Assembly (NCBI RefSeq): GCF_044324875.1
Contig: NZ_CP172185.1
DNA: 64,000 nt
Strand: one strand, 5' to 3'
Origin: Escherichia coli
GTDB lineage: Bacteria; Pseudomonadota; Gammaproteobacteria; Enterobacterales; Enterobacteriaceae
Position numbers and translations under genes: made by a program. Positions 1 through 36,219 of the stretch are shown here, piece by piece. Every line of letters starts with the position of its first letter. The first letter of the stretch is position 1. The notes below the pieces were generated by a model. That model made no database searches. It was not told the origin of the DNA and saw nothing but the letters and a program-made list of their open reading frames with translations.

Positions 1-707
1 GCCTTTATAGATCAATGACTTTTCAAAATTCGCTCCGAGAAAGGTGATTGATACGTCTTTGTACTTACTGAGATCTTTCCATGCGGTAATATTAAGCTGT
101 TCCTTTTTCGCATCGGTAAAGTACTCATTATTCATGATGAACATATCATTTTCGTTAATTGCTGGTAGCTGGTTCAAAATATTCTTCAGTACTTCCCCTT
201 GTATTTCTGGTTTTCTTTCTGCCGCAATATACATATTTCTGTCATCTAATGACTGTACATTGTGTATTAATGAATTAAGAATTACATTTTTTATATTAGT
301 ATCACCCTCATTAATATTCTGAAAAGAATGAAAATTAGTTACGTCATCAATATAAACATTCCACCCGGACAATAATTCAACAGAAATTTTAAAAAAGGTT
401 TTGTCTGTGATAAGTAATGTCGATGAATTCGAACTATTCAAATAATCGATAACAGTACTAATTACACTTTCATCTCTCGGAACTGAATCTGTAATAATAT
501 ACTTACAATCATTAATTTGTTTTGCTGTCTGTTTAATAAGTTCTTGTGTGTTCTGCACTAAAATATATTTTTCAGTACTATTGTTAATTAAATTACATAT
601 AGCAGTAGTTTTACCTGAACCACAAGGGGCGGAGACATACTTAAATTTATTATAAATAGGTGTAGGATTAATCATTTGTACACGCTCCATATTGATTAAT
701 TTAGAAA
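1..707 (-). CDS. P-loop NTPase, helicase-like or AAA+/STAND-like, C-terminus outside window (partial, at least 235 aa)
   Basis: My own minus-strand translation from ATG at 707: MADLSKLINMERVQMINPTPIYNKFKYVSAPCGSGKTTAICNLIN..., with Walker A GSGKTT near residue 30 and a hydrophobic-DD Walker B-like motif VYIDDV about 85 aa later. Low GC. Not in the ORF track because it has no stop within the window. Confidence 0.6.
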
Positions 708-792
708 GGTCAGCCATTCCAGTGTCTGGCCTTTCGTTGTTTTAGTTATTAGTATTTAGGCATTGAAAAATAATTTTATTTGGCATAGTAAA

Positions 793-2355
793 TCATGATT
801 TATTGATTAAATACTCCACCGATTTTAGGTCATCATTCTGAACTGCCATAAATTTCACATCACCAGTTTTACTATCAATTACCATTGCTTGCTTCTCATT
901 AACACCAATATAATTCACAACTAACATAATAGCATTTCCTAAACGCTTCATTTTTATATTTTTAATAACACGTTTAATCTTCACATTAAAATTAAGTCTT
1001 AAATTAGTATTCTTAGAGTCGAGCAAATCATCAGTGCACGATTCTTTTAAATCGCTAAATTTTTCATAACCAACATTTGATTGTTTCAACCTAGTAATTT
1101 CAGTTCGTATTTCGCTAATACGACGTTGGAGGTTTTTTAGTATACGTCTATCATTAGGGTCAGGTATGTATTCCTTTTCCATGTCTGCGAGTATTTCGCT
1201 ACTATAATTTTCTTTTGTAGCTAGCTCTATTGAAAGATAGTTTATTTTAATTTGTATATCATCATCGTTTGACCTCAACATAGAAAAGTCAAAATTCCTG
1301 ATATGTTCCAATAAAGCATTTTCTATAATCTTGTATTTGAAACCTCTTTCTTTGCATTTATCAATTTTCAATAGACTCCCACCACAACGAAAGTATGTAT
1401 CACCTTTTTTATCGACAGAATTAACTTGGACATATCTGCCACAATTCATACATATGCATAATCCTGCAAATAAATTATTAGCTTTTACATTTACTTTTCC
1501 CAACGGGTTTCTCTGCTTTCGTAAATCATTTACAGTTTCAAATAATGATTGTTCAACAACCACTGGATAGATAATCATACCATCTAAAATTTTACGTCCC
1601 GTAGAATTGAATTTACCAATAAGCCTTTGATCTTTAATTATTTTAACCAAATGATTAATAGTCGGCTCACTTTCATTTATCTGCATTTTTTTCTTTTTTA
1701 GTTCATCACGGATTGCAGCAGGTCCAAATCCATCAGCATACATTTTAAAAATAAGGTTGAACTTCTCAGCCTCACCTTCTTTTATCACATACTTATTATT
1801 TTTAACTTCTATCCATGATGGCACTCGATGTGTTAAAACAGATGTTCCTTCGATAGTATTTTTTATTCTTTCATCCCAGTTTTTAATACTTAAGCGAGCT
1901 TTGCGTTTACTTTCATTATGTGCTCGCTGTAAACCTCCTGAAATAATATTCAGATCACTATATTGGTGATGTATCATTTCTGTTTCTACTTCATGAATAT
2001 CGCATCCAGCATTAATCAAGCTCAAGAATAATCCTGCGGCTCGGTTGGGTGCGGCTCTACTAAAGCGGTCTAGGTTTTCAATGACTAACACTGAATTAGT
2101 GATCTTTTTCTGTAACACATCATCTATAAAGTTTTTCAGTACAGAACCATCTTCGATATTTTTTCCGCTATATGCAGATACACCTTCGGCATACAACCAA
2201 CTAATATCCCCAAACTCATAGCCACGGTTATGTTGAGAATCATCGTATGCAGCAACGTAATCTCGCAGCATTGTTTGCTGTCTCGACATGCCATAGCCAT
2301 CTTTAGCTTGTCCTCTCGAACTGACACGAGCGTAGCAATACACCGCTTTTTTCAT
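793..2355 (-). CDS. Large serine recombinase (integrase/resolvase family), 520 aa
   Basis: N-terminal resolvase-type catalytic region YCYARVSSRGQ with the serine nucleophile context; cysteine-rich zinc-ribbon-like segment CICMNCGRY...FRCGG; C-terminal coiled-coil-like region; low GC; sits at the extreme end of the foreign element. Confidence 0.85.
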   Translation of the reverse strand: MKKAVYCYARVSSRGQAKDGYGMSRQQTMLRDYVAAYDDSQHNRGYEFGDISWLYAEGVSAYSGKNIEDGSVLKNFIDDVLQKKITNSVLVIENLDRFSRAAPNRAAGLFLSLINAGCDIHEVETEMIHHQYSDLNIISGGLQRAHNESKRKARLSIKNWDERIKNTIEGTSVLTHRVPSWIEVKNNKYVIKEGEAEKFNLIFKMYADGFGPAAIRDELKKKKMQINESEPTINHLVKIIKDQRLIGKFNSTGRKILDGMIIYPVVVEQSLFETVNDLRKQRNPLGKVNVKANNLFAGLCICMNCGRYVQVNSVDKKGDTYFRCGGSLLKIDKCKERGFKYKIIENALLEHIRNFDFSMLRSNDDDIQIKINYLSIELATKENYSSEILADMEKEYIPDPNDRRILKNLQRRISEIRTEITRLKQSNVGYEKFSDLKESCTDDLLDSKNTNLRLNFNVKIKRVIKNIKMKRLGNAIMLVVNYIGVNEKQAMVIDSKTGDVKFMAVQNDDLKSVEYLINKS

Positions 2356-2396
2356 TTTATTTTCCCTAAAATCATAACAGTAAAAAGCAGTATATC

Positions 2397-2801
2397 ATGG
2401 TGGTTATTGGCATCATTGCCATTTTAAGCGCCATTGGTATTCCCGCTTATCAAAACTACCTGCGCAAAGCCGCACTCACCGACATGCTACAAACCTTTGT
2501 GCCTTACCGTACCGCCGTAGAGTTGTGCGCGCTGGAACATGGTGGATTAGATACCTGCGACGGTGGCAGTAATGGCATCCCCTCGCCTACCACTACCCGC
2601 TATGTTTCAGCCATGAGTGTGGCAAAGGGCGTGGTGTCGCTGACCGGGCAAGAAAGTCTCAATGGGCTAAGCGTCGTCATGACGCCGGGTTGGGATAACG
2701 CAAACGGCGTCACCGGTTGGACGCGCAACTGCAATATTCAAAGTGACAGCGCATTGCAGCAAGCCTGCGAAGATGTCTTCCGCTTTGATGACGCCAACTA
2801 A
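2397..2801 (+). pseudogene. ppdD: Type IV prepilin PpdD, N-terminally truncated by the upstream insertion
   Basis: ORF begins MVVIGIIAILSAIGIPAYQNYLRKAA..., i.e. inside the conserved pilin N-terminal helix; the leader peptide and the G/F cleavage site with FTLIE are missing; sequence immediately upstream is low-GC foreign DNA. Confidence 0.75.
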
Positions 2802-2810
2802 GGAGCGGCA

Positions 2811-4196
2811 ATGAATATTCCACAGCTCACCGCCCTGTGTCTGCGTTATCAGGGAGTCTTGCTGGATGCCAGCGAAGAGGTGGTTCATGTTGCGGTGGTC
2901 GATGCCCCTTCGCATGAGCTACTGGACGCATTGCATTTCGCTACCACCAAACGTATTGAGATCACCTGCTGGACGCGCCAACAAATGGAAGGTCACGCCA
3001 GTCGCACACAACAGACATTGCCCGTAGCTATTCATGAGAAGCATCAGCCCAAAGCAGAGTTGCTGACTCGAACGTTACAATCTGCGCTGGAACAACGCGC
3101 GTCTGATATTCATATCGAACCAGCGGACAATGGCTACCGCATACGCTTGCGTATCGACGGCGTATTGCATCCTTTACCGGATGTTTCACCGGATGCCGGA
3201 ATCGCATTAACCGCCAGATTAAAAGTGCTGGGGAACCTGGATATTGCGGAACATCGCCTGCCGCAGGACGGGCAATTCACTGTCGAACTGGCAGGAAACG
3301 CCGTCTCATTTCGTATTGCGACCTTACCATGTCGGGGTGGTGAAAAGGTGGTATTAAGGTTGTTACAGCAGGTGAGTCAGGCACTGGATGTCAACACGCT
3401 TGGAATGCAGCCGTTACAACTGGCGGACTTTGCTCATGCCTTGCAACAACCACAGGGACTGGTGCTGGTAACAGGCCCTACAGGCAGCGGCAAAACGGTC
3501 ACGCTTTATAGTGCCCTGCAAACGCTGAATACCGCTGACATTAATATTTGTAGCGTAGAAGATCCGGTTGAGATCCCCATAGCCGGACTAAACCAGACGC
3601 AAATCCATCCGCGTGCCGGACTCACCTTTCAGGGCGTTTTGCGTGCGTTATTGCGCCAGGATCCTGACGTCATCATGATCGGAGAGATCCGCGATGGCGA
3701 AACGGCAGAAATTGCCATTAAAGCCGCGCAAACCGGTCACCTGGTGTTGTCTACCCTACACACTAATTCCACCTGCGAAACGCTGGTACGTTTACAGCAA
3801 ATGGGAGTCGCCCGCTGGATGCTATCATCGGCGCTTACGCTGGTAATAGCCCAGCGTCTGGTACGCAAACTTTGCCCGCATTGTCGCCGGCAGCAAGGGG
3901 AGCCCATCCATATTCCAGACAATGTATGGCCGTCGCCGCTGCCCCACTGGCAGGCACCCGGTTGTGTACATTGCTACCACGGTTTTTATGGTCGCACGGC
4001 CTTATTTGAAGTTCTGCCCATAACACCGGTCATACGTCAGCTTATTTCCGCTAATACCGACGTTGAATCGCTGGAAATGCACGCCCGACAGGCGGGTATG
4101 CGTACGCTTTTTGAAAACGGCTGCCTGGCCGTGGAGCAAGGCTTAACCACCTTTGAAGAGTTAATCCGCGTATTGGGGATGCCGCATGGCGAGTAA
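2811..4196 (+). CDS. hofB: Type IV pilus assembly ATPase (PilB/GspE family)
   Basis: 461 aa with Walker A GPTGSGKT and a CxxC...CxxC zinc motif; position downstream of ppdD. Confidence 0.95.
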
Positions 4197-5388
4197 GCAA
4201 CTCTGGCGCTGGCATGGCATAACCGGCGACGGTAATGCGCAAGATGGGATGCTATGGGCAGAGAGTCGTGCTTTACTGCTTATGGCACTACAGCAACAGA
4301 TGGTTACCCCACTTAGCCTGAAGCGAATCGCCATCAATTCTGCGCAGTGGCGAGGAGATAAAAGCGCGGAAGTCATTCATCAACTGGCGACGCTACTCAA
4401 AGCCGGGTTAACGCTTTCTGAAGGGCTGGCACTGCTGGCGGAACAGCATCCCAGTAAGCAATGGCAAGCGTTGCTGCAATCGCTGGCGCACGATCTCGAA
4501 CAGGGCATTGCTTTTTCCAATGCCTTATTACCCTGGTCAGAGGTATTTCCGCCGCTCTATCAGGCAATGATCCGCACGGGGGAATTGACTGGTAAGTTAG
4601 ATGAATGTTGCTTTGAACTTGCTCGACAGCAAAAAGCCCAGCGTCAGTTAGCCGATAAAGTGAAATCAGCGTTGCGTTATCCCATCATCATTTTAGCGAT
4701 GGCAATCATGGTGGTTGTGGCAATGCTGCATTTTGTGCTGCCGGAGTTTGCTGCTATTTATAAGACCTTCAACACCCCACTACCGGTACTAACGCAGGGG
4801 ATCATGACGCTGGCAGACTTTAGTGGCGAATGGGGCTGGCTGCTGGTGTTGTTCGGCTTTCTGCTGGCGATAGCCAATAAGTTGCTGATGCGCCGCCCGA
4901 CCTGGCTTATCGCGCGGCAGAAATTGCTGTTACGCATCCCGATTATGGGTTCACTGATGCGGGGACAAAAACTCACGCAGATCTTTACGATTCTGGCGCT
5001 GACTCAAAGTGCAGGCATTACTTTTTTACAGGGCGTAGAGAGCGTCAGAGCAACAATGCGCTGCCCGTACTGGGTGCAACTTCTGACACAAATCCAGCAC
5101 GATATCAGTAACGGTCATCCCATCTGGCTGGCGCTAAAAAATACCGGTGAGTTTAGCCCGCTCTGTTTGCAATTAGTGAGAACAGGAGAGGCATCCGGCT
5201 CGCTGGATCTCATGTTAGACAACCTCGCCCATCATCATCGGGATAACACACTGGCGCTGGCGGATAACCTCGCAGCCTTACTGGAACCGGCGTTGCTGAT
5301 CATAACGGGAGGAATTATCGGTACGCTGGTGGTGGCAATGTATCTGCCCATTTTCCATTTAGGCGATGCAATGAGTGGAATGGGATAA
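4186..5388 (+). CDS. hofC: Type IV pilus inner-membrane platform protein (PilC/GspF family)
   Basis: 400 aa, overlaps hofB stop; hydrophobic membrane segments; conserved synteny. Confidence 0.95.
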   Translation: MASKQLWRWHGITGDGNAQDGMLWAESRALLLMALQQQMVTPLSLKRIAINSAQWRGDKSAEVIHQLATLLKAGLTLSEGLALLAEQHPSKQWQALLQSLAHDLEQGIAFSNALLPWSEVFPPLYQAMIRTGELTGKLDECCFELARQQKAQRQLADKVKSALRYPIIILAMAIMVVVAMLHFVLPEFAAIYKTFNTPLPVLTQGIMTLADFSGEWGWLLVLFGFLLAIANKLLMRRPTWLIARQKLLLRIPIMGSLMRGQKLTQIFTILALTQSAGITFLQGVESVRATMRCPYWVQLLTQIQHDISNGHPIWLALKNTGEFSPLCLQLVRTGEASGSLDLMLDNLAHHHRDNTLALADNLAALLEPALLIITGGIIGTLVVAMYLPIFHLGDAMSGMG

Positions 5389-16638: not shown

Positions 16639-19027
<2,389 letters not shown>

Positions 19028-19080
19028 TCTTTACGCCATTAACTTCTTAAATTCATACGATGCAAAAGGCATCGCTACAA

Positions 19081-20148
19081 TTACGCCCGGGCAGCCCGGC
19101 TCACTTCATTTGCCACTCGCTCGGTGGCATCCGGAATGGATGCAGCGCGGGCGCGTTCTGCCATGGTTAATAAGGTTTCTCGCGACCACCCGGCCAGGGT
19201 GTTGGCGACAGCATCCACGCTAAGCTGTGGCTGCTCGATAATTTTGGCTGCGCCCGCTTTTTCCAGCGGTAGAGCATTCCAGTATTGCTGGCGGTCTTTA
19301 TGTTGAAACGGCACAAACAACGCCGGTAGTCCTGCCGCAGCGATTTCACTCACCGTTAACGCACCGGAGCGGCAAACGACGACATCCGCCCACGCATACG
19401 CCGCCGCCATATCATCAATAAATTCCGTCACTTTATGCTGCGGTTGCCCCGCTTCGGCATATGCCTGTTCAACGGATTGTTGCGAACCTTTACCGCTCTG
19501 ATGCCAGATAGTGACTGAATCACCCAGTTTCGCAGCAACCTGCGGCATTGTCTGGTTAAGAATGCGTGCGCCCTGGGAACCACCCACTACCAACACACGA
19601 ACCGGACCTTCACGTCCAGCCAAACGTTGCTGCGGCAACGGCAGCGCCAGCACATCGGTACGCACCGGGTTACCCACCACTTCCGCATTAGGGAAAGCGC
19701 CTGGAAACGCCTGCATCACTTTGGTAGCAATCTTCGCCAGCCATTTATTGGTTAAGCCCGCAATACCGTTTTGTTCATGAAGCACAACCGGAATGCCTAA
19801 CGACCACGCGGCCAGACCACCTGGACCTGATACGTAGCCGCCCATACCGAGCACCACGTCAGGTTTGTACGCTTTCATAATCGCCCGCGCCTGACGCCAG
19901 GCGTTGAAGATACGCAGCGGGGCAGCTATCAGTGCTTTTATACCTTTTCCACGCAGACCAGAGATACGAATGAAATCAATTTCGATGCCATGTTTTGGCA
20001 CTAAGTCCGCTTCCATACGGTCGGCAGTCCCCAGCCAGCGAACTTGCCAACCCTGAGCCATTAGATGGTGCGCAACCGCCAGCCCCGGGAATACATGTCC
20101 ACCGGTTCCGCCTGCCATCACCATTAATCGCTTTCCTTGACCACTCAT
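19081..20148 (-). CDS. murG: Lipid II synthase (UDP-GlcNAc transferase) MurG
   Basis: 355 aa with [12 protein letters not shown]-terminal motif. Confidence 0.97.
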
Positions 20149-32437: not shown

Positions 32438-34162
32438 TCAGGTTCTCTCCGTTTTGCTTAACCACATTTCATCCATTCCGCCCCCGCGAATCTGCATCGG
32501 GTAGACGTGCTCACTGCCATCGACGGTAACATCAACAAACACCAGGCGATTATTGCGCACCTGTTCCAGCGCCTCGCTAAGTTTGCTTTCCAGTTCTTGC
32601 GGATGAGAAATCTGGATCCCGACGTGACCATAGGCTTCCGCCAGACGAACGAAATCGGGTAGCGATTGCATATAAGATTGTGAATGACGGCCGGAATAGA
32701 TCATGTCCTGCCACTGTTTCACCATCCCCAGATAGCGGTTATTGAGATTCACCACCAGTACGGGCAACTCGTATTGCAACGCGGTAGACAGTTCCTGGAT
32801 GTTCATCTGAATACTGCCGTCGCCAGTGACGCAAACCACGGTTTCTTCTGGCAACGCCATTTTGACGCCCAGTGCCGCAGGCAAACCAAACCCCATCGTG
32901 CCGAGGCCGCCAGAGTTGATCCAGCGACGCGGTTTGTCGAATGGATAATAAAGCGCAGCAAACATCTGGTGCTGCCCGACATCGGACGTCACGTAAGCGT
33001 CTCCCTTCGTCAACCGCCAAAGAGTCTCGATCACCGCCTGCGGTTTAATCTTTTCACTGTGAGTGTCATATTTCAGGCACTGACGAGCCCGCCACTGTTC
33101 AATCTGCTGCCACCAGTCGCGGATCTCATCCAGCGGTTGATGGACGGATTCTTGCGACAGGAGTTCAAGCATTTGTTCGAGGACCTGGCGAGCATCCCCC
33201 ACAATCGGGATATCAGCAGTCACGGTTTTAGAAATGGAAGTAGGATCAATATCGATATGCAGAACCGTGGCATTTGGGCAGTACTTCGCCAGATTGTTCG
33301 TCGTTCGGTCATCAAAACGTACCCCGACGGCAAAAATCACATCCGCGTTATGCATCGTCATATTAGCTTCGTAGGTGCCGTGCATTCCCAGCATGCCCAG
33401 TGCCTGACGATGCGTTGCCGGAAACGCCCCCAGCCCCATTAATGAGGAAACAACGGGCAGATTCAACGCCTCCACCGTTTCTTTTAGCTGCTGATGACAG
33501 CCCGCCGTGATTGCCCCACCGCCTACATAGACAACCGGTTTTTTTGCCGCCACCAGCGTTTGCAGAGCACGCTTAATTTGCCCTTTATGTCCGGTAGTAG
33601 TGGGATTGTAAGATCGCATACTGACCGACTCCGGCCAGACATAGGGTAATTTGTTCGCCGGATTAAGAATATCTTTGGGTAAATCAACGACCACGGGCCC
33701 AGGACGACCACTTGCCGCCAGCCAGAAAGCCTTTTTCAGCACCTGCGGAATGTCTTCCGTTTGCTTAACCAGAAAACTGTGTTTAACCACCGGGCGAGAA
33801 ATCCCCACCATGTCGCACTCCTGAAAGGCATCGTAGCCTATCAACGAGGTCGCTACCTGCCCGGAAAGGACAACTAATGGAATGGAATCCATATAAGCGG
33901 TGGCAATGCCAGTAATCGCATTGGTCGCCCCTGGACCCGACGTTACCAGCACGACGCCGACTTCCCCGGTCGCGCGCGCCAGACCATCGGCCATATGCAC
34001 CGCCGCCTGCTCATGACGAACTAAAACATGATCGATACCACCCACGGTATGCAATGCATCGTAAATATCAAGGACCGCGCCTCCGGGATAACCGAATACT
34101 TGTTTAACGCCCTGATCGATAAGCGATCGGACGACCATCTCGGCTCCAGACAACATCTCCAT
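32438..34162 (-). CDS. ilvI: Acetolactate synthase III large subunit
   Basis: 574 aa TPP enzyme starting [14 protein letters not shown]. Confidence 0.95.
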
Positions 34163-34480
34163 GGCCTGCCTCACTGTTTGACGGAAAAAAATGTGTAAAA
34201 CACATTAACCGTCCGATCTTGCTTAAGCAATTGGCAGCCAGAGACATAAACACGGGGTAATAAGAATAAACAGGAGGAAAGGTGAAAAGAAACGATAAAA
34301 TCCTCCATTACAGAGGATTAAATTGATAATAAATCGGCTGAATCCCACAACTTACAGCAATTTCTCTATTTTTTTAATTAATCCTAAAATAGAGAGCACA
34401 CACATTCAGAATAAAATTCTACATTCAATAAAAAATGCAGAATAAACCAGACATTGATGTCTGACCTATTCTGCATTCAG

Positions 34481-35425
34481 TTAGCGTTTGCAAATTGAGA
34501 CTAATTGCTCTTCCATCCACTGATGGCCTTTATCGCGCCCGGCAGCTTCATGCCAGGAGAGATAACAGGTTCTGCTGTTTTGTTTTAACGGCAGCGGTAA
34601 TATCTGTAATTCTAAGGATTCAGCGAACTCTTCCGCCAGCCAACGCGGCGCAATAGCGACCAGATGCGTTTGCGACACCACGCTAAGTACGCTCATCATT
34701 GCCATGCCCTGATACGCGATACTGGCTTGCTTATCTACCGTGTCATACCACGGTTGACTAAATGACGCGAAACGATCGAGCGAAACCGCCGCATGTTGTT
34801 CGTTATAAACATCATGTTTCAGTAACGGGCCTTTAATTGTTGGATGATTTTTGCTGGCTACCAGCACCATTTCATCTTTAAATAATGGCACACTGGTAAA
34901 TTCAGGACGATGGAAGTCTTCATAACTAATCACAAACTCCGTTTCCTGATAACGCAGCTGATGTTCAGTGTTCTGATTTAATGAAGACTTGAACATAACA
35001 TGTATATTTGGCGCAATCTGCTCAATGTGATTATAAATCTGCGAGGTCAGAATGCTGTCTAACGGGCTGCAGACACAAAGATGAAATACACGTTCACTAC
35101 TGGCAGGCTCAAAGCCTGAACCTGGTAATTCATTTTGTACTAATTGCAATGCCTGACGAACTGAACCAAAAAGTTGAAATGCGCGAGCAGTCGGTTGAAT
35201 ACCACGGCCATAACGAACAAAAAGCTCGTCATTAAACATCACCTTCAGGCGTGCAACAGCGTTACTGACCGCAGGTTGCGACATTCCCAGAACATGAGCG
35301 GCACGGGTGATGTTTTGCTCCTGCATCACGGCATCGAAAACGGTTAATAAGTTGAGATCGACCATGCGTAGCTGTGGCTTGCTTAACTCCGCCGTCTCTG
35401 GATGATCTGTTTGTACCTCTGGCAT
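34481..35425 (-). CDS. leuO: LysR-family transcriptional regulator LeuO
   Basis: 314 aa starting [16 protein letters not shown]; flanked by very AT-rich intergenic DNA. Confidence 0.95.
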
Positions 35426-36083
35426 ACTTAACTCCACTGTCACACTTAACTCCCTTTCCCTTATTGGAATGCAGAGAAATAATCCTCGAGAATATGATTT
35501 ATCATGCATATAAAATAAGAAAAAGGAAAATGAGTAAAATTAGGAAAACATAAAGATACGGGTTCTTATAAAAACAGAATCCATTGCCGTGGAAAGCGTC
35601 ATTTACCACAGCATAATAATCCATAATGTTTTTGTTGCGAAAACAATCTAATCATAACTACCACGAATACTCAATCATCCACAAAATGGATTAAATGTGC
35701 TTTTTTAATAATTAATTTATATGTTTAATGCATTAATTCTTAACATTAATTGATCAATAATATTCACCAAATGAATATCAAAAAATTCGCAAAACATATA
35801 ATTCAATACAAATCATCAGGATAGGTTTTGTAACGCGTGCATTTTATCCCCCTTTCCCTCGTCGATTAGATGCAAAAATTTATTCTGAAATATGTCAACC
35901 GATGAAAAGCAGCGGTGGTTAAGCAGAAATTAATATCGCTTGTTTTAACCACCGCAGCACAATTAGCTAATTTGACTGATGCAGAACTCACGCTGGCTGG
36001 ACGTTTTTGTTGCATCAGGGTTGACATCCGTTTTGGTATCCAGTAACTCTAAAAGCATATCGCATTCATCTGGAGCTGATTTG

Positions 36084-36170
36084 ATGACTCACATCGTTCG
36101 CTTTATCGGTCTACTACTACTAAACGCATCTTCTTTGCGCGGTAGACTGGTGAGCGGCATTCAGAATTAA
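36084..36170 (+). CDS. leuL: leu operon leader peptide
   Basis: 28-aa [31 protein letters not shown] with four consecutive CTA Leu codons, followed by an attenuator hairpin. Confidence 0.9.
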
Positions 36171-36194
36171 GTCAGCACTCAGTCAAACAAAAAA

Positions 36195-36219
36195 CCCGCG
36201 CCATTGCGCGGGTTTTTTT
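36195..36219 (+). terminator. leu attenuator (Rho-independent terminator)
   Basis: cccgcgccattgcgcggg hairpin followed by a T7 run. Confidence 0.85.

Follow-up and report, generated by a model that had tools for sequence, protein, structure and literature searches.

The window described here is the whole stretch of Escherichia coli DNA that was analysed, 64,000 nucleotides in length. Near its left edge the end of a low-GC island adjoins the 3' part of ppdD, a type IV pilin gene, which is followed by the pilus assembly genes hofB and hofC. The features of this region are listed below, where L001 stands for the corresponding locus in the carrier genome MSI001.

1-675, minus strand: 5' part of a gene for a P-loop/ResIII-like protein of about 477 aa, which runs past the left edge of the window and corresponds to L001 19242-20675
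793-2355, minus strand: gene for a large serine recombinase (LSR) of 520 aa, with its start 41 bp from the junction with the ppdD fragment
2356-2396, no strand assigned: right end of the island, comprising the attP-derived half of attR and the 5' leader and promoter region of the LSR gene, and including a TAA at 2367-2369
2397-2404, no strand assigned: 8-bp core ATGGTGGT, common to attL and attR and hence to attB and attP, in which ATG is Met13 of ppdD
2397-2801, plus strand: 3' fragment of ppdD, codons 13-146 and the stop, 134 aa starting with MVVIGIIAILSAIG, without the leader, Gly-1/Phe+1 and Glu5
2811-4196, plus strand: hofB (pilus assembly ATPase), 461 aa, 453 of 461 identical to K-12 without gaps, called gspE in carrier annotations
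4186-5388, plus strand: hofC (platform protein), 400 aa, 391 of 400 identical to K-12 without gaps

The headless ppdD fragment

Processing and assembly of type IV pilins require a leader, the Gly-1/Phe+1 cleavage and methylation site and Glu5. In a BLASTP alignment the window ORF matched residues 13-146 of K-12 PpdD (b0108, 146 aa) without gaps and with 134/134 identities. The 12 residues absent from it, MDKQRG|FTLIEL, make up the entire leader, the Gly-1/Phe+1 processing site and Glu5. The ppdD frame is closed by the TAA at 2367-2369, 30 nt upstream of 2397, and no ATG, GTG or TTG stands in frame between the two. A six-frame search of the whole 64-kb window found no encoded G[FM][TS]L[IVL]E peptide, and a degenerate DNA pattern for GFTLIEL had no match in the window. 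The start of the ORF, ATG at 2397, is the native codon Met13 of ppdD and lies inside the recombination core. The headless state of PpdD is a deterministic structural fact and not a statistical signal. A sequence-only reading of this DNA had claimed that the leader, the G/F cleavage site and the FTLIE(L) segment are missing and that the frame begins past the N-terminus; both claims hold, and the alignment to K-12 PpdD now fixes the start at Met13. The same reading had named an in-frame upstream start encoding the leader as the observation that would overturn it. Such a start or exon was looked for and is ruled out by the TAA at 2367-2369, by the lack of an intervening start codon and by the absence of GFTLIE from every frame of the window.

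Profile searches gave the same picture. In NCBIfam the window ORF covers positions 13-144 of the PpdD equivalog model; TIGR02532, the GFxxxE cleavage/methylation domain, was not found in it by NCBIfam and scores 35.9 bits on full-length K-12 PpdD, against a cut-off of 16.3. Pfam detects the globular Pilin domain alone, at residues 24-114. Of the two hallmarks of a functional type IV prepilin, the fragment lacks the class III signal, of which a short basic leader is part, and retains the C-terminal globular pilin domain.

In all carriers PGAP labels the 134-aa ORF 'ppdD: prepilin peptidase-dependent pilin', and a weak Shine-Dalgarno-like AAGCAG precedes the ATG at 2397 with a spacing of 6 nt. 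Both could be taken to mean that the ORF is a working pilin gene with an alternative start at 2397. We consider this barely credible, as the ORF has no leader, no Gly-1/Phe+1, no Glu5, no TIGR02532 match and no promoter. Trace translation of the headless PpdD is conceivable if a transcript exists; on established type IV pilin biology, the product would be without everything that the prepilin peptidase and the assembly machinery require. Annotation pipelines, all the same, still call the headless fragment ppdD.

The island, its junctions and its recombinase

GC content is 30.7% in window positions 1-2000 and about 52% in the rest of the window, which argues for a foreign origin of the island. 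It ends at 2396, and the window holds its right end and attR only. The left junction lies beyond the window, and the stub and island size given here for this strain are extrapolated from four other genomes, MSI001, 94-3024, KSC64 and FDN-24. In these the order is nadC, a 27-aa stub, seven island genes, ppdD', hofB, hofC and guaC, and the two ATGGTGGT cores are 9,597-9,599 bp apart, giving an island of about 9.6 kb with 31% GC.

The core was located by aligning the attB of K-12, the attL of MSI001 and the attR of the window. The uninterrupted attB junction sequence is ...GAACTGATGGTGGTTATTGGC..., the reconstructed attP junction sequence is ...GTATATCATGGTGGTCATTAACAG..., and attL in MSI001 is ...GGTTTTACACTTATCGAACTG-ATGGTGGT-cattaacag.... 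The left junction reads ATGGACAAGCAACGCGGTTTTACACTTATCGAACTG-ATGGTGGT-cattaacagtaa... and is the same in L001, L011, L012 and L013. It codes for MDKQRGFTLIELMVVINSKLLYKYRIC, a 27-aa product of an 84-nt CDS (L001 12764-12847) that keeps ppdD codons 1-15 and is named by PGAP 'prepilin-type N-terminal cleavage/methylation domain-containing protein'. In these four loci the stub also keeps the native ribosome-binding site, the CRP-S promoter, the leader and the cleavage site, and a tiny orphan prepilin peptide may be made from it on Sxy induction.

Because this stub and a second ATGGTGGT stand at the other end of the island, ppdD was split by insertion and not truncated by deletion. Deletion of the 5' end was considered and is ruled out, since four carriers retain both stub and promoter on the other side of the island. 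The earlier description of ppdD as truncated thus stands in one respect, the 5' part being missing at this place, and falls in the other, the promoter and codons 1-15 persisting upstream in carriers.

The gene at 793-2355 encodes a protein with the three-part architecture of its class, a resolvase-type catalytic domain (Pfam Resolvase, residues 5-125) followed by a Recombinase domain (PF07508, 195-282) and a zinc beta-ribbon (Zn_ribbon_recom, PF13408, 295-353); in PHROGs it belongs to the integrase family phrog_95 (E = 1e-42). In an alignment of 14 homologues the catalytic motifs YxRVSSxxQ (R10-V11-S12-S13-Q16) and ENxDRFSR (E93-N94-D96-R97-F98-S99-R100) and the zinc-ribbon cysteines C302, C305, C324 and C334 are invariant. 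Protein searches of sequenced phages, plasmids and IMG/VR gave no close relative; the best match among sequenced phages is only 29% identical, and none in plasmids or IMG/VR exceeds 31%. Weak NCBIfam matches were to XisF, the recombinase of the fdxN element, and to CcrB (E = 1e-5, 24.5 bits).

In the reconstructed attP the best axis of dyad symmetry falls on GT, core positions 4-5, with 12/22 arm matches, and suggests GT as the crossover dinucleotide. At the core of attB dyad symmetry is weak (9/22), and other centres score equally well. In the integrated state a single promoter-like site precedes the LSR gene, at 2398-2371 on the minus strand, with its -35 overlapping the core. At the left end of the island there is an outward-facing promoter-like site with an extended -10 (L001 12930-12901, minus strand), which in a circularised island would read across attP into the LSR gene. 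This arrangement suggests that integrase expression differs between the excised and the integrated form.

We conclude, with a probability of about 0.9, that a low-GC island of about 9.6 kb was inserted by its own LSR into codons 13-15 of ppdD and split ppdD-hofB-hofC. The LSR, to judge from its domains, would have catalysed a site-specific insertion at these codons. The Sxy/CRP-S promoter, ribosome-binding site, leader, Gly/Phe site and Glu5 would have remained beyond the island, with the 27-aa stub, and the remainder of ppdD with hofB and hofC would now follow two island genes that point the other way, with no promoter in evidence. To the left of the window one would expect nadC, the CRP-S promoter and MDKQRGFTLIELMVV fused to the island at the second ATGGTGGT, about 9.6 kb from 2397.

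The E. coli island has seven genes, namely those for the LSR, the 477-aa P-loop/ResIII-like protein, a 185-aa small serine recombinase and four others. The second serine recombinase is of the invertase type (L001 15709-16266; phrog_125, E = 2e-58). No gene is annotated at L001 16267-16814 and at 18259-19241, the latter about 1 kb long, and the island may contain an invertible segment or a decayed gene. Pfam, NCBIfam and PHROGs had no match for the four other proteins, and PADLOC had marginal ones only (E of 0.01 or weaker); the island as a whole has no PADLOC match below E = 0.004. No phage structural, packaging or lysis genes and no repressor module were found, the PHROGs matches of the island being confined to integrase, invertase and unknown-function families, and the island accordingly does not classify as a prophage.

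The P-loop protein has a weak Pfam match to ResIII (E = 1.6e-4, residues 13-60), matches phrog_2467 (E = 5e-38), has no match in a sequence search of the PDB and is annotated at L001 as 'type III restriction endonuclease subunit R'. A phrog_2467 homologue accompanies the LSR in Hafnia and Pseudescherichia, so that this protein probably provides a core island function. Copies of its gene (window 1-757) with about 90% identity occur at other sites in E. coli without this LSR, at least 24 among the matches listed, annotated as DEAD/DEAH helicase or type III restriction subunit R.

Since recombination between identical cores would rebuild ppdD exactly, the disruption is in principle reversible, and the island could act as a switch that excises under some condition, precisely rebuilds ppdD-hofBC and restores the pilus. 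LSR recombination is conservative, so that attL x attR would yield a complete ppdD again. The LSR reading frame is unbroken, its catalytic motifs are preserved and the LSR gene is 100% conserved among the E. coli carriers; hofB and hofC, too, are undamaged wherever carriers were examined, including those in seven other genera. Against such a switch, no recombination directionality factor was recognised among the island cargo, the predicted attP 30-mer had no match in metagenome and viral contigs (assemblies rarely capture excised circles), and a recent insertion explains the intact hofBC equally well. We regard a functioning switch as unlikely.

Distribution of the island and of its site

The LSR gene is present in 6 of 5,426 complete E. 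coli genomes, at ppdD in all six and with 100% identity throughout. With a 601-bp K-12 probe centred on the site, 5,412 of the 5,424 matching E. coli genomes have it uninterrupted. The ppdD 5' region is non-contiguous in the remaining 12, and this island occurs in only six of them; the other six must have another disruption, e.g. an IS element, a deletion or another element.

Positions 1-3000 of the window match the six complete genomes end to end at 99.2-99.7%. That the junction might be an assembly artefact or a chimeric join deserves next to no weight: nothing specific speaks for it, and it is contradicted by the same junction in six independently finished genomes and several metagenomic contigs. 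Compared with MSI001, window positions 1-2569 have zero mismatches and positions 2570-4200 have 39 differences. The window differs by about 2% from each of the four carriers over 12 kb, and the best complete genome over 11.6 kb is only 99.4% identical to it. From the identity of the island to that of MSI001 next to a divergent flank it follows that the window represents a separate lineage into which the same island has entered. Identities of island and flank form a mosaic across the four carriers, and the island has therefore also moved by homologous recombination. Carrier 94-3024 (also CFSAN002236) is O104:H21.

A search of 5.8 billion proteins returned 35 LSR homologues, and the genomic context of eleven was looked up; three loci from species-representative genomes and four metagenomic contigs sharing an island-end 25-mer were added. 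The species-representative scan used narrow peptide patterns (3 loci), and the taxonomic breadth rests mainly on the exact-protein look-ups. LSR relatives with 39-89% identity were found at the same ppdD codon in seven other genera and in metagenomic contigs, as follows.

Enterobacter roggenkampii (L003), LSR 88%, at ppdD; a second case (L026/27), LSR 40%, at ppdD
Enterobacter sichuanensis (L014), LSR 73%, at ppdD
Hafnia alvei (L004/5), LSR 72%, at ppdD
Yersinia pseudotuberculosis (L006), LSR 44%, at ppdD
Serratia liquefaciens (L007), LSR 42%, at ppdD
Klebsiella sp. (L008), LSR 42%, at ppdD
Edwardsiella tarda (L009), LSR 39%, at ppdD
Pseudescherichia vulneris (L016), LSR 41%, at ppdD
Contigs L020-L024, LSR 87% (L023) and 73% (L024), at ppdD

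The layout in these relatives is constant, with the LSR gene about 40 bp from, and divergent to, a 5'-truncated ppdD-hofB-hofC-guaC. The seven junctions that were aligned all fall at the same ATGGTnG, which encodes Met-Val-Val of the pilin alpha-1 helix, and on the island side a motif ACnGTA...AGCA...ATC keeps a fixed distance from the core in seven genera. No island of this set brings a substitute 5' end for ppdD. That homologous recombinases land on the same codon in so many genera is explained by the target (...ELMVVIG...), the best-conserved segment of the pilin gene. The sequence-only reading had not recognised the element as a site-specific LSR island with relatives at this codon in many genera.

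Other sites are also used. In Phytobacter diazotrophicus (L015 9940-10000; LSR 43%) the insertion lies beside an HTH regulator near ruvC, yebC and aspS, with a junction that still reads CATGGTGGTAT. A metagenomic relative (L019 12808-13256; LSR 74%) interrupts the 5' region of a TRAP small-permease (DctQ-like) gene at ATGGT|TATTAT, and relatives in Yersinia intermedia (L025, LSR 39%) and at L010 (33%) also lie elsewhere; taken together, the off-target settings are TRAP dctQ, near the HTH regulator and near an MFS gene. The ppdD specificity of the clade is thus strong, not absolute. The off-target events point to enzymes that are active or were so until recently. In metagenome Ga0209371 the same island-end variant is joined both to ppdD (L022) and to the TRAP gene (L019), where the target is truncated.

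Cargo varies within the clade. Enterobacter and Hafnia relatives carry a CI-like S24 repressor and HTH module, an Enterobacter relative has a reverse transcriptase, and HNH nucleases occur among the cargo, as in the Pseudescherichia island. In the ppdD island of Pseudescherichia vulneris PADLOC recognised UzuA (Uzume, E = 2e-54) and JukA (Juk, E = 1e-70) at L016 17746-19521. The element is best described as a member of a family of small, LSR-driven integrative islands, some of which carry defence genes.

Expression, known systems and significance

The sequence-only reading had stated that hofB and hofC are intact, and both are full length and align with K-12 without gaps. In the work of Cameron and Redfield (PMC1635313) the ppdD promoter carries a CRP-S site, and Sxy raised the ppdD transcript about 90-fold in K-12. 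As this induced transcript was measured with primers in hofB, hofB is co-transcribed with ppdD; hofB itself is without a CRP site (PMC1635313). The primers of the CRP-S fragment (PMC1635313) map immediately before the stub, at L001 12550-12680, and are absent from the window, in agreement with the earlier statement that the native promoter is displaced. Through the insertion hofB and hofC have come to lie about 9.6 kb from their only documented promoter.

It had further been proposed that any expression of the fragment would come from read-through out of the element. The genes nearest the junction, for the LSR and the P-loop protein, are both on the strand opposite to ppdD. The sole plus-strand promoter-like match within 500 bp upstream is weak (9/12) and lies at 1949-1977, about 420 bp away, and the promoter-like total of the upstream region does not exceed that of shuffled sequence, i.e. 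the background. Island read-through into ppdD is unlikely for these two reasons, the opposite-strand genes and the background promoter-like count. It is the more probable that ppdD'-hofB-hofC are silent. On the gene order and the missing N-terminus, the strain is predicted to make no assembly-competent PpdD pilin, and loss of competence-regulon (Sxy) control over hofBC is likewise predicted. A strain of this kind is expected to be without the PpdD pilus, which in EHEC is the haemorrhagic coli pilus.

The captured CRP-S promoter faces the two plus-strand genes of the island (L001 13191-14468 and 14474-15571), and no plus-strand terminator-like site was found between it and these genes (L001 12550-15571). 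The island cargo could on this layout be under competence-regulon control.

Interruption of genes by LSR elements is well known from comK, sigK, spsM and SCCmec. A headless pilin is an ordinary consequence of gene disruption by such an element and is mechanistically unsurprising. The A118/phi10403S prophage in comK of Listeria is a complete inducible prophage, whose excision has been demonstrated and is regulatory. It resembles the ppdD island as a serine-integrase element in a competence-related gene that excision can restore. The ppdD island differs in its size of 9.6 kb, in that no phage structural genes were detected in it and in that no attP junction was found in contigs. In Bacillus subtilis, SPbeta (SprA, in spsM) and skin (SpoIVCA, in sigK) undergo developmentally programmed excision with known directionality factors. 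These elements, too, have an LSR built of the same three domains and interrupt a host gene at a short core; the ppdD island, by contrast, has no recognised directionality factor or programme, and its host belongs to a different phylum. SCCmec, with CcrA/CcrB, is likewise an LSR-driven, non-phage chromosomal cassette whose one conserved attB lies within a gene. Its insertion at the 3' end of rlmH leaves that gene active, whereas the ppdD insertion removes the 5' end of its gene, and the 24.5 bits of the LSR are far below the CcrB cut-off of 900 bits.

A further parallel is provided by prophages of Streptococcus pneumoniae in comYC, which disrupt the major competence pilin gene and abolish the uptake pilus (PMC12637031). 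Here, too, a mobile element recurrently disrupts a competence pilin gene; host, integrases and pilin are unrelated, and the effect on transformation was measured in pneumococcus and is undemonstrated in E. coli (PMC3330819). The pneumococcal disruptions have been interpreted as protection against curing (PMC12637031). By analogy, ppdD might be targeted since loss of the uptake pilus would shield the island from transformation-driven deletion ('chromosomal curing'). The place of ppdD in the Sxy/CRP-S competence regulon, as its pilA orthologue (PMC1635313), and the use of the same codon across seven other genera would fit this view. Natural transformation of E. coli was, however, not obtained even under Sxy induction, and PpdD, which is made only when Sxy is artificially induced, was not produced in culture by any of 72 ECOR strains (PMC3330819). 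A selective benefit in E. coli is doubtful on both grounds, and the cost of ppdD loss in this species is probably small. Off-target insertions in unrelated genes also speak against such targeting, and a conserved, usually dispensable sequence is a safe broad-host-range landing site that explains the data equally well. Selection for pilus loss is an improbable reason for the choice of site, and splitting of ppdD by an LSR island with a conserved landing site remains our preferred reading.

A still more ambitious proposal is that of a dedicated pilin-gene-targeting island family in which the choice of ppdD is functional and which forms a two-way switch between competence and island cargo across the Enterobacterales. 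We think this decidedly improbable. If it were true, insertion would shut off the DNA-uptake pilus that Sxy regulates and thereby shield the island from recombinational curing, the two left-end plus-strand island genes would be placed downstream of the captured CRP-S competence promoter, and excision would restore the pilus.

Among mobile elements of E. coli, the defence-island hotspots (Hochhauser et al. 2023, PMC10121019) resemble the present case as small, low-GC islands with their own integrase at a fixed site. In contrast to these, the E. coli ppdD island has no PADLOC match below the value given above, and it is the Pseudescherichia relative that has UzuA and JukA. In those parts of the text and supplements of the hotspot paper that were available, ppdD, hofB and hofC are not mentioned (PMC10121019). 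In the literature searched, no paper was found that connects ppdD with a serine recombinase or an integration site. The LSR clade and its pilin-gene attB are apparently previously undescribed.

The natural attB of the clade is conserved and lies where a type IV pilin gene varies least; it is used in at least eight enterobacterial genera and with varied cargo. The ppdD site is an additional integration hotspot for the map of the enterobacterial mobilome, and its sequences provide a candidate attP/attB pair for recombinase engineering. The island is a Gram-negative counterpart of the insertions in comYC of pneumococcus and in comK of Listeria, and as such it bears on the debate about mobile elements and competence. 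Elsewhere in the window there is a second low-GC patch, at 34001-36000 with 40.8% GC, just upstream of the leucine operon leader at 36070-36219.
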